A stretch of DNA of 32,323 nt, taken from NCBI GenBank assembly GCA_041493245.1, contig JBGPYK010000002.1, forward strand, positions 1 through 32,323, written 5' to 3'. Below the pieces are notes generated by a model that ran no database searches, was not told the origin of the DNA, and worked only from the letters and a program-made list of their open reading frames with translations. Numbering within the stretch: the first letter of the stretch is position 1; the number at the start of each line of letters is the position of its first letter. The position numbers and the translations under genes were made by a program. Positions 10,194-25,016 of the stretch are shown here, piece by piece. The DNA comes from Candidatus Methylomirabilia bacterium. GTDB taxonomy: Bacteria; Methylomirabilota; Methylomirabilia; Rokubacteriales; CSP1-6.

Positions 10194-10649
10194 TCACGGC
10201 GTGGCGAACCGGCGCGCGGTGCCGAGCAGACGGCGCGCCGCGGCTCGCACGTCGGGATCGGGAATGGGGGCGATGGTCTCGTCGATCTCACGCACATCGT
10301 CGGGCGTGAGCGCGCGCACCGGCGGGCCCGCTGGCGCCGGCGCGGGCCCGCGCCGGGCGTCGAGCCGTCCGAGCGTGAAGCGGAGCGTGCGAACCGTCTC
10401 GAAGCGCTTGCCGAGGCGTGCCGTCAGCTCACCGGCGCGCAGCGTCAGCTCCTGCAGCCAGGGGGAGTTGTCGACGACGACGTGCAGGCATCCATTGGTC
10501 AGGGCGTGCGGCTCGGCGCGCCGCGCCACGTCGGGGCCCACGATGGCGCTCCACGACCGGCGGACGCGATCTTCGACCAGCCGATCCCGTAGCTCGGGCA
10601 CCGCGCTCACGAGCAGGTCTCCGATGGCACGCGGGCCTCGGTGTGTCAC
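10194..10649 (-). CDS. DUF721 domain protein (DciA family, candidate replicative-helicase operator)
   Basis: 151 aa: IGDLLVSAVPELRDRLVEDRVRRSWSAIVGPDVARRAEPHALTNGCLHVVVDNSPWLQELTLRAGELTARL. This fits the DUF721 pattern (W..ivG...a.h..P..l..g.L.V.V.s..W..EL). The start is GTG. Confidence 0.65.
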   Translation of the reverse strand: MTHRGPRAIGDLLVSAVPELRDRLVEDRVRRSWSAIVGPDVARRAEPHALTNGCLHVVVDNSPWLQELTLRAGELTARLGKRFETVRTLRFTLGRLDARRGPAPAPAGPPVRALTPDDVREIDETIAPIPDPDVRAAARRLLGTARRFATP

Positions 10650-22967: not shown

Positions 22968-22976
22968 GGGATGGCG

Positions 22977-23423
22977 ATGAAGGTCATTCTCCTGGACGAC
23001 GTGGCGAAGCTCGGCCGCCGGGGCGAGGTGCGCGACGTCTCCGACGGGTTCGCCCGCAACTTCCTCATCCCCAAGAAGCTCGCGCTCACCGCCACCGCCG
23101 GCAACCTGAAAGGCCTGGTCCACATCCAGAAGCAGCAGGAGGCGAAGGCCGACCGCATCAAGGCCGACGCCGAGGCGCTCCGCGGTCGGATCGAGGCGCT
23201 CGTCTACGAGGAGCGGCGCCAGGCCTCTGAGGAGGGGGGTAAGCTCTTCGGCTCCGTGACCGCGCAAGACGTGGTCGATTTCCTACAGCGGCACACGGTC
23301 AAGCTCGAGCGGCGGCGCGTGCATCTCGACGAACCCATCAAGGCGCTCGGCGAGAGCGTCGTCGCCATTCGTTTGCATCCCGAGGTGACCGCGCAGCTCC
23401 GAGTGAACGTCGTCCGCGAGTAG
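22977..23423 (+). CDS. rplI: 50S ribosomal protein L9
   Basis: MKVILLDDVAKLGRRGEVRDVSDGFARNFLIPKKLA... I prefer ATG 22977 (GGGGA 6 nt upstream). ATG 22971 is the alternative. Confidence 0.9.
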   Translation: MKVILLDDVAKLGRRGEVRDVSDGFARNFLIPKKLALTATAGNLKGLVHIQKQQEAKADRIKADAEALRGRIEALVYEERRQASEEGGKLFGSVTAQDVVDFLQRHTVKLERRRVHLDEPIKALGESVVAIRLHPEVTAQLRVNVVRE

Positions 23424-23480
23424 TCGCGCCACCGGACGACACGCGACCCCCGAGATCATGGTTTCGGGAGTCGACGTTTC

Positions 23481-23553
23481 TATCCACCTGCCGTCCACGC
23501 CGTGTCCACAGAGTTCCGTCGGGTATCCACCTGGTGTCCACGGCATGTCCACA
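23481..23553 (+). promoter_or_regulatory. Phased array of six DnaA-box-like heptamers T(A/G)TCCAC (one is CGTCCAC)
   Basis: The boxes start at 23481 (TATCCAC), 23492 (cGTCCAC), 23503 (TGTCCACA), 23524 (TATCCAC), 23535 (TGTCCAC) and 23546 (TGTCCACA). All have the same orientation, with spacings of 11, 11, 21, 11 and 11 bp. An inverted GTGGAC lies at 23591-23596. The array sits in the 216-bp rplI-dnaB gap. Confidence 0.5.
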
Positions 23554-23639
23554 AAAGCGGACGCGCGGACGATTTTCGTTGACGAACGCCGTGGACCCGC
23601 TCAAGGATCATCGCCGATGCTTCGTGGTGACACGCGCGC

Positions 23640-25016
23640 ATGAGCCCCCTGGTAGTTCCTGCGCGAATTCCGCCCCACAACCTGGACGCGGAGCGCGCGG
23701 TGCTCGGCGCCGTGCTCCTGGAGGGCCGGGAGGCCCTGCCGCGCGTCATCGAGATTCTGCGACCCACCGACTTCTACACCGAGGCCCACCGTGTCGTCTT
23801 CGTCACCATGCAGACGCTCTTCGACCGCGGCGAGCCGGTCGACCTCATCACGCTGAGCGAGGAGCTGCGCCGGCAGGGCCAGCTCGACTTCGTGGGCGGG
23901 CCCGCGGCGTTGGCGCTGCTCGTCGAGCAGGCCTCGATCGCCTCGCACTTGATCTCATATTCGAACATCGTCCGCGACATGGCCGTCCTTCGGGAGTTGA
24001 TCCAGACGTCCAGTCAGCTCATGACCCAGGCCTTCGAGGCCAAGGAAGACGTACAGGTGCTGGTCGACGACGCCGAGCGCAGGATCTTCAGCCTGGCGGA
24101 GCGCCGACTCGAGGGCAGCGCGTTGCCCGTGGAGCGCATCCTCAAGAACACGTTCGAGTACATCGAGCGGCTCTACGAGCGGAAAGAACACGTCACCGGC
24201 GTCGCGACTGGCTTCGAGAAGCTCGATGTCGAGACCGCGGGTTTCCAGCCCTCGGAGTTCATCATCATCGCCGGCCGCCCCAGTATGGGGAAAACCGCCT
24301 TTGCGCTGAACATCGCCCAGCACGTGGGCGTGAGCTTGCGGGGCAGGGTGCTCGTGCTCAGCCTCGAGATGTCGGCGTCGCAGCTCGTGCAGCGCATGCT
24401 CTGCTCCGAGGCCAAAGTCGACTCGCAGCTTGTGCGGACAGGGCGCCTGAGCTCCTCCGACTGGCATCGACTCACCGCCGCCGCTGGCCGGCTGAGCGAG
24501 GCCAAGATCTTCATCGACGACAGCCCCGGGCTCACGGTGCTGGAGGCGCGGGCCAAGGCCCGGCGCATGAAGGCGGAGCACGGCCTCGACCTGCTCATCA
24601 TCGACTACCTCCAGCTCATGCGCGGCCGGGCCTCCATCGAGAATCGCCAGCAGGAGATCTCGGAAATCTCGCGCTCGCTCAAGGCCCTGGCCAAGGAGCT
24701 GATCATCCCCGTCGTGGCCCTGTCCCAACTCTCCCGAGCCGTCGAGGCGCGCTCCCAGCGCGACTTCCGCCCCCAGCTCTCGGACCTGAGGGAATCGGGT
24801 GCGCTTGAGCAGGATAGCGACTTGATCCTGTTTCTCTATCGACAGTCTGTGTATAAGGGGGATGACCTCCCTCCCGACGAGGCCAACATCGCCGAGGTGA
24901 TCATCGGCAAGCAGCGGAACGGGCCGATCGGGACGGTGAAGGTGGTGTTCCTCCCGCAGTACGCCCGCTTCGAGAACGTCGCCGACTACCATCGGCAACC
25001 TGAGCCCTCGTTCTAA
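23640..25016 (+). CDS. dnaB: Replicative DNA helicase DnaB
   Basis: 458 aa: PPHNLDAERAVLGAVLLEG..., Walker A GRPSMGKTAFALN, IIDYLQLM and the SQLSRAVEAR...LSDLRESGALEQDSDL motifs. There is no intein. Confidence 0.95.
   Translation: MSPLVVPARIPPHNLDAERAVLGAVLLEGREALPRVIEILRPTDFYTEAHRVVFVTMQTLFDRGEPVDLITLSEELRRQGQLDFVGGPAALALLVEQASIASHLISYSNIVRDMAVLRELIQTSSQLMTQAFEAKEDVQVLVDDAERRIFSLAERRLEGSALPVERILKNTFEYIERLYERKEHVTGVATGFEKLDVETAGFQPSEFIIIAGRPSMGKTAFALNIAQHVGVSLRGRVLVLSLEMSASQLVQRMLCSEAKVDSQLVRTGRLSSSDWHRLTAAAGRLSEAKIFIDDSPGLTVLEARAKARRMKAEHGLDLLIIDYLQLMRGRASIENRQQEISEISRSLKALAKELIIPVVALSQLSRAVEARSQRDFRPQLSDLRESGALEQDSDLILFLYRQSVYKGDDLPPDEANIAEVIIGKQRNGPIGTVKVVFLPQYARFENVADYHRQPEPSF

Follow-up and report, generated by a model that had tools for sequence, protein, structure and literature searches.

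Which protein reads the six short repeats that separate rplI from dnaB in a genome of the Rokubacteria/Methylomirabilota, and what does it do there? We addressed this in a window of 32,323 nucleotides (the whole stretch of DNA analysed), in related genomes, and in a metagenome scan for the same layout. The organism itself was found in about 20 sediment metagenomes.

Six phased repeats upstream of dnaB

A direct sequence search recovered all six heptamers described in a sequence-only reading of this DNA: TATCCAC at 23481, cGTCCAC at 23492, TGTCCACA at 23503, TATCCAC at 23524, TGTCCAC at 23535 and a second TGTCCACA at 23546. These YRTCCAC sites (23481-23552) share the plus strand and follow each other with start-to-start steps of 11, 11, 21, 11 and 11 bp, as had been reported. 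The gap that holds them measures 216 bp, from the rplI stop at 23423 to the dnaB ATG at 23640, and the 30-nt block said to be duplicated at a 43-bp offset is indeed present twice, at 87% identity; this duplication is the structure of the array. Taken as 9-mers, the boxes lie 2 bp apart (core to core 11 bp four times and 21 bp once), in one orientation and on about one face of the DNA. The parts of the locus, in window coordinates, are:

22971..23423, plus strand: rplI (ribosomal protein L9; Pfam Ribosomal_L9_N and Ribosomal_L9_C), the last gene of an rpsF-ssb-rpsR-rplI string
23438..23480, plus strand: G+C-rich hairpin 3' of rplI, a putative rplI terminator whose T tail is weak (RNA fold -22.1 kcal/mol, z -1.85)
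23480..23510, plus strand: box triplet A, 9-mers CTATCCACC (23480), CCGTCCACG (23491) and GTGTCCACA (23502) with 2 bp between 9-mers; TCCAC cores at -96, -85 and -74 from TTGAC in relatives
23523..23553, plus strand: box triplet B, 9-mers GTATCCACC (23523), GTGTCCACG (23534) and ATGTCCACA (23545); cores at -53, -42 and -31 in nine of nine aligned genomes, -53/-42 being the best-conserved pair
23553..23578, plus strand: spacer AAAAGCG-(GC-rich)-CGATTTTCG, its A-tract and T-tract two helical turns apart; the T-tract abuts the -35 and appears UP-element-like, a pattern conserved in the alignment
23579..23584, plus strand: TTGACG, -35 hexamer of the predicted dnaB promoter; TTGAC is invariant in 12 related loci
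23591..23596, minus strand: inverted GTGGAC within the promoter spacer, probably there by chance
23603..23608, plus strand: AAGGAT, -10 candidate with 3/6 consensus positions, 18 bp after the -35
23617..23643, plus strand: 8-codon upstream ORF, MLRGDTRA*, whose TGA overlaps the dnaB ATG (ATGA)
23640..25016, plus strand: dnaB, replicative helicase of 458 aa (Pfam DnaB and DnaB_C); the same gene call is made on JGI contigs

The array is real and lies far above chance level. The window contains nine copies of TRTCCAC where 3.5 would be expected, and this 72-bp stretch accounts for five of them. Phased pairs of the form RTCCAC-N5-RTCCAC numbered four in the window, and all belong to the array, also when one mismatch was tolerated. 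Six YRTCCAC sites in 72 nt have a Poisson expectation of about 7e-10, and in none of 300 windows simulated with a Markov-1 model did 72 nt contain more than 2 sites. The inverted GTGGAC, which the sequence-only reading had listed after the array, is present but was dropped from the element because the alignment shows it conserved in no relative.

The genes of the window are mutS2, prs, an ispE-like gene, a TPR lipoprotein gene, the gene for DciA, a tRNA methyltransferase gene and peptide ABC permease genes; these are followed by a DEAD/MrfA-type helicase gene, groES/EL, the rpsF-ssb-rpsR-rplI string, dnaB, and genes for a permease, an AlkA-like glycosylase, an MFS pump and an ABC-F protein. 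The DciA (PF05258) helicase-loader gene is encoded on the minus strand (10194-10649) at a divergent coding-strand switch near 10.7 kb, and DnaA-box-like heptamers were absent from that switch. Identical proteins extended the contig by about 4.6 kb, which carries ABC-F, HNH, ComEA-like and two cold-shock genes.

The repeats carry the core of a DnaA box

Positions 2-8 of the DnaA 9-mer were kept across 51 boxes from nine genomes, for which the matrix reads n-[T29/C17]-[A26/G23]-T49-C47-C50-A50-C51-[C20/G18/A10]. An A or G at position 3 of the DnaA box is typical of high-GC bacteria, and TTGTCCACA is the form in Streptomyces and Mycobacterium. The best boxes of the window, GTGTCCACA and ATGTCCACA, share eight of nine positions with TTGTCCACA and have two mismatches to TTATCCACA, so that the earlier statement of a repeat one position off the consensus holds for the 8-mer and for the high-GC form of the 9-mer, and fails for the 9-mers against TTATCCACA.

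The outer positions were not kept. T1 was present in 8 of the 51 Rokubacteria dnaB boxes (16%), A9 in 10 (20%) and T2 in 29, whereas boxes beside dnaA, among the listed metagenome matches, had T1 in 21/28 (75%), T2 in 26/28 and A9 in 25/28 (89%). Positions 1, 2 and 9 were left free in the metagenome pattern, and the comparison with dnaA-adjacent boxes is unbiased there. Promoter-linked arrays of other lineages were intermediate between these two groups. Position 9 is instead fixed per slot, with C at -53 and G at -42, which is unusual for a DnaA box, and these two slots form one strongly conserved pair, GGATATCCACCGGATGTCCACGGA. A perfect anchor box was found in no relative. Such core-only, anchor-less boxes would be either purposely weak sites that need cooperative DnaA, or the sites of another protein that reads a repeat of 7+4 bases.

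Conservation and history of the array in Rokubacteria

The sequence-only reading had named conservation in related genomes as a check on the array, and this conservation was found. The array lies upstream of dnaB in L001-L004, L006, L008, L010, L011, L080, L091 and L130, in degenerate form in L001, L003, L006 and L080. The assignment of the window to Rokubacteria/Methylomirabilota comes from its DnaB relatives, with DnaB identities of 64-89%. Measured from TTGAC, the TCCAC cores of nine aligned genomes fall into the same six slots (-96, -85, -74, -53, -42 and -31, to within 1 bp), while the bases between boxes diverge. Triplets and slots were kept even among genomes whose DnaB differs by 11-19%. 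The conserved order runs from the rplI stop through the G+C-rich hairpin, triplet A, an extra turn of 10 bp and triplet B to the A-tract, the GC-rich spacer, the T-tract, TTGAC(G/C), an 18-bp spacer, nAnnAT, 5-8 nt and an ATG. By inspection of the alignment, neither a LexA-type nor any other conserved palindrome lies between the triplets. Strain variation amounted to 3 substitutions in 317 nt with none in boxes, which is too few to weigh.

In the DnaB tree, a deep sister group A (L014-L022) is always gap-less, with rplI abutting dnaB, and the array is present in 10 of the 15 rows of group B (100/100 support). The gap is missing in L005, L007, L009, L012 and L013. The gap-less pair L005/L007 is nested inside an array-bearing clade with 99/99 support, and both members lost the array without visible replacement. 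The simplest history of these sequences would be one gain in one Rokubacteria subgroup, followed by at least one clean loss. In contigs from the same sediment (runs X17 and X18; window 23422-23670), rplI is joined to dnaB by only 30-38 other letters, so gap-less relatives co-occur with the array-bearing organism.

Two further observations concern these relatives. An insertion about the size of an intein is present in some dnaB genes of Rokubacteria: the DnaB of L013 has 665 aa, and in L080 about 1 kb is added ahead of residue 218. Contigs titled Acidoferrum, Binatia or Limnocylindria (L001, L005, L016 and L018) have DnaB proteins that fall tightly within the Rokubacteria clade of the tree, and were probably mis-binned or come from mislabelled MAGs.

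A candidate dnaB promoter next to the array

A strict sigma-70 and terminator scan of 23380-23680 called neither a promoter nor a terminator, so it is conservation that carries both calls. In 11 of 12 loci, an nAnnAT hexamer lies 18 bp beyond TTGAC (16 bp in L011), always 5-8 nt ahead of the first ATG. In L001, L006 and L130 this first ATG is that of dnaB itself. In the window and in L002, L003, L004, L008, L010, L011 and L080, it opens an ORF of 8-10 codons that ends in a TGA overlapping the start of dnaB. What speaks most for the promoter is that the distance from hexamer to first ATG stays constant whichever ORF that ATG opens. TTGACG and AAGGAT would thus form the dnaB promoter, with a predicted transcript start near 23615-23617. 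The 8-codon ORF begins at about this start and would be leaderless; likewise, the dnaB mRNA of L001, L006 and L130 would be leaderless, as dnaB starts 5-7 nt after the -10.

The hairpin after rplI keeps its position in the relatives despite a changed sequence in the alignment. Together with the promoter, it would uncouple dnaB from the ribosomal-protein operon, as the comparison with gap-less relatives suggests. The sequence AAAAGCG...CGATTTT (23553-23576) between the last box and the -35 is an imperfect palindrome, with the version AAATTCG...CGAATTT in L001. This A/T-tract palindrome could be a bend or the site of a second protein.

Phased boxes at other replication genes

The genes for DnaA, DnaB and ribonucleotide reductase are classical DnaA targets. 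A metagenome scan for three phased RTCCAC boxes returned at least 120 loci, and many of the listed matches were perfect TTATCCACA-nn-TTATCCACA arrays. Among these loci, the array directly adjoined the dnaA gene in at least nine, lay upstream of dnaB in at least five (two of them further Rokubacteria and three from other lineages), and preceded ribonucleotide reductase genes of at least three types in at least four.

The three dnaB loci from other lineages (L098:3606-3633, L107:8584-8611 and L187:6309-6336) have triplets 70-135 bp upstream of dnaB, oriented like the gene, on DNA of 57-59% GC, and their DnaB proteins are 39-42% identical to that of the window. About 100 bp ahead of the dnaB ATG, the L187 sequence is TTGTCCACA-gt-CTATCCACA-cg-TTATCCACA. 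Canonical arrays are thus also found upstream of dnaB, a gene that is a DnaA target elsewhere. No further phased pairs were found in the other dnaB-anchored loci.

Phased triplets also precede a class Ia (ATP-cone) ribonucleotide reductase gene in L147 (7516-7543) and a class II (B12) gene in L161 (7111-7138), and for this reason control of nrd by DnaA appears widespread. In L097 (1304-1331) and L167 (1166-1193), a three-box array ahead of a ribonucleotide reductase gene abuts a ACCTTTTTnCTTGACG -35 element and is followed by an NrdR-box-like CCACAAGATATAGT. The boxes of these two contigs (67-69% GC) are core-only, with mostly C at position 9, and resemble the Rokubacteria dnaB boxes; in a tetranucleotide composition test of the two contigs as Rokubacteria, acidobacterial loci scored alike. 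The high-GC arrays of L148 and L190 were rejected as relatives of the element, as they are unrelated 11-bp tandem repeats beside non-replication genes.

Comparison with known DnaA targets

The closest counterpart is mycobacterial. The region upstream of dnaB is one of five strong DnaA sites in M. tuberculosis (by IDAP-seq) and M. smegmatis (by ChIP-seq), and the DnaA mutant I282T of M. tuberculosis binds more weakly at the dnaB promoter and under-expresses dnaB (Hicks et al. 2020, PMC7738170). This site ('Rv0057, upstream of dnaB') also follows rpsF-ssb-rpsR-rplI and lies directly upstream of dnaB (PMC7738170). Like the array, it is a DnaA target outside the origin, predicted in our case, and in mycobacteria the data point to positive control of dnaB (PMC7738170). 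The same paper also cites a link between DnaA and dnaB in Caulobacter crescentus. The Rokubacteria/Methylomirabilota array differs from the mycobacterial region in that it keeps the heptamer core only, has a regular 3+3 arrangement at an 11-bp pitch and lies wholly upstream of the -35; moreover, it is confined to one subgroup of its phylum, was lost again in some members and is known from its sequence.

In E. coli, pairs of same-orientation 9-mers 2-3 bp apart were needed in vivo at almost all DnaA targets (Stringer, Fitzgerald and Wade 2024, PMC11317965), and the array has this arrangement of a cooperative unit, with same-orientation 9-mers 2 bp apart. Such 'double DnaA boxes' occur at nrdA, dnaA, rpoH, polA and other genes, and, as in the low-affinity oriC arrays with 2-bp spacing, single boxes can be weak. 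The E. coli boxes come in pairs of which one is usually near-perfect, whereas the array consists of six boxes that keep only the core, none of them a perfect anchor.

The sequence-only reading had compared the array with E. coli datA and the B. subtilis DnaA-box clusters. These too are clusters outside oriC (PMC3245932 for B. subtilis), and with both systems the array shares possible regulation of a neighbouring gene and sequestration of DnaA. Those systems, however, have consensus boxes in mixed orientations and act mainly in initiation control, while the array has weak boxes locked to a promoter. Of the four possibilities that the sequence-only reading left side by side, a DnaA-box cluster that regulates dnaB is best supported; the choice of comparators is what we would change, since the experimentally mapped DnaA site at dnaB of mycobacteria and Caulobacter fits better.

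Which protein reads the array

We consider it likely, from the comparisons of sequence above, that the array is a cooperative DnaA-box array that controls the dnaB promoter. Operators of the OmpR/PhoB family (pho boxes, ArcA direct repeats) also have direct repeats of about 7 bp at an 11-bp pitch, upstream of or at the -35, and the array falls within the usual geometry of direct repeats of 6-7 bp at a 10-11 bp pitch. Another DNA-binding protein, either a winged-helix response regulator of this type or a lineage-specific cell-cycle regulator that reads a 7-bp repeat at an 11-bp pitch and activates the dnaB promoter from an upstream position, is a rather unlikely alternative, but one with several points in its favor. 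A conserved 7-bp core with four variable bases is how such sites are classically built, the array does not keep positions 1 and 9 of the DnaA box as dnaA-adjacent arrays do, the slots at -53 and -42 are conserved as one pair, and a class I activator could well work from a place upstream of the -35. Yet the core coincides with the stretch of the DnaA box that is conserved best, with the A/G at position 3 seen in high-GC bacteria, and canonical 9-mers occupy the same place and orientation in other lineages. The sites come in threes and not in pairs, the replication gene behind them is a documented DnaA target (PMC7738170), and the window holds no linked regulator or sensor gene and no response-regulator domain among its genes; nor does either the window or any other dnaB-anchored locus contain another phased pair. 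What survives of the earlier OmpR/PhoB proposal is that only the 7-bp core is kept; the match to the DnaA core, the triplets and the lack of a regulator gene in the window count against it.

If DnaA does bind, the main role of the array might be to titrate or inactivate the initiator, in the manner of datA or the B. subtilis clusters, while dnaB transcription is hardly affected. The presence of six boxes outside any recognisable origin would fit such a sink, as would the mycobacterial dnaB site, which is among the most strongly bound in its genome (PMC7738170), and the B. subtilis clusters are reported to restrain initiation (PMC3245932). We nevertheless hold it to be improbable: the strict register between boxes and -35 across diverged genomes fits promoter control and is not needed for a sink, individually weak boxes make a poor reservoir, and L005 and L007 have lost the element with nothing visible in its place. 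That the array forms an origin or a part of one, as also proposed, is highly improbable and was not borne out, although an array of same-orientation DnaA boxes near ssb, dnaB and the DciA gene (10194-10649) would suit an origin. Relatives nested within the array-bearing clade dispense with the whole gap. The gap has 63% GC and its lowest-GC 25-mer 48%, which leaves no AT-rich unwinding element, in agreement with the earlier remark that none was clear, and no DnaA-trio run was seen by inspection. Domain annotation found neither dnaA nor dnaN in the 32-kb window or the 4.6-kb extension, and the cumulative GC skew, computed for the 32-kb window only, has a local maximum near 23 kb instead of a minimum. 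The repetition of a 30-nt block could further suggest a non-functional local duplication or a chance repeat, but this is effectively refuted by the chance expectation given above and by the conservation of triplets and slots across 11-19% DnaB difference while inter-box bases diverged.

A proposed model for DnaA control of dnaB

Under DnaA control, the initiator, probably in its ATP form, would load cooperatively on both triplets along one face of the DNA, at about -131 to -66 relative to the predicted transcript start. As no box is perfect, occupancy should need DnaA-DnaA cooperativity. Bound DnaA would then stimulate a promoter whose -35 is good and whose -10 is poor, with 18 bp between them, and the A/T tracts between array and -35 may aid contact or bending. 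We infer that the effect is probably activation because the array is clear of both promoter hexamers, of which the -10 is poor, because 18 bp make a long spacer, and because dnaB is under-expressed in the M. tuberculosis mutant with weaker DnaA binding. Transcription of dnaB would in this way respond to the level of active initiator, and a side role as a DnaA sink is possible alongside promoter control.

A bolder reading of the same parts is speculative, and we regard it as unlikely. The gap would be either a rewiring cassette for the replicative helicase that one Rokubacteria subgroup acquired in a single event, or the target of an undescribed regulator of dnaB, perhaps also of nrd, that mimics the DnaA-box core. 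Four parts would make up the cassette: the hairpin, resembling a terminator, which uncouples dnaB from the ribosomal-protein operon; an anchor-less set of six core-only boxes, which (ATP-)DnaA could occupy only by cooperating; a promoter of low strength; and the upstream ORF of 8 codons, leaderless and translationally coupled to dnaB.

Most likely, the example is new at the level of the phylum and the kind of element is already known from the mycobacterial experiments, so that the general understanding of DnaA is unchanged by the array. The DnaA-dnaB link known from Actinobacteria and Alphaproteobacteria would be extended to an uncultured soil and sediment phylum, and, together with the metagenome loci, the array suggests that DnaA-box arrays phased at 11 bp are a recurrent feature of dnaA, dnaB and ribonucleotide reductase genes across bacteria. 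With the cassette present in some close relatives and absent from others, the group offers a natural comparison between a helicase supply tied to the initiator and one tied to ribosome synthesis.
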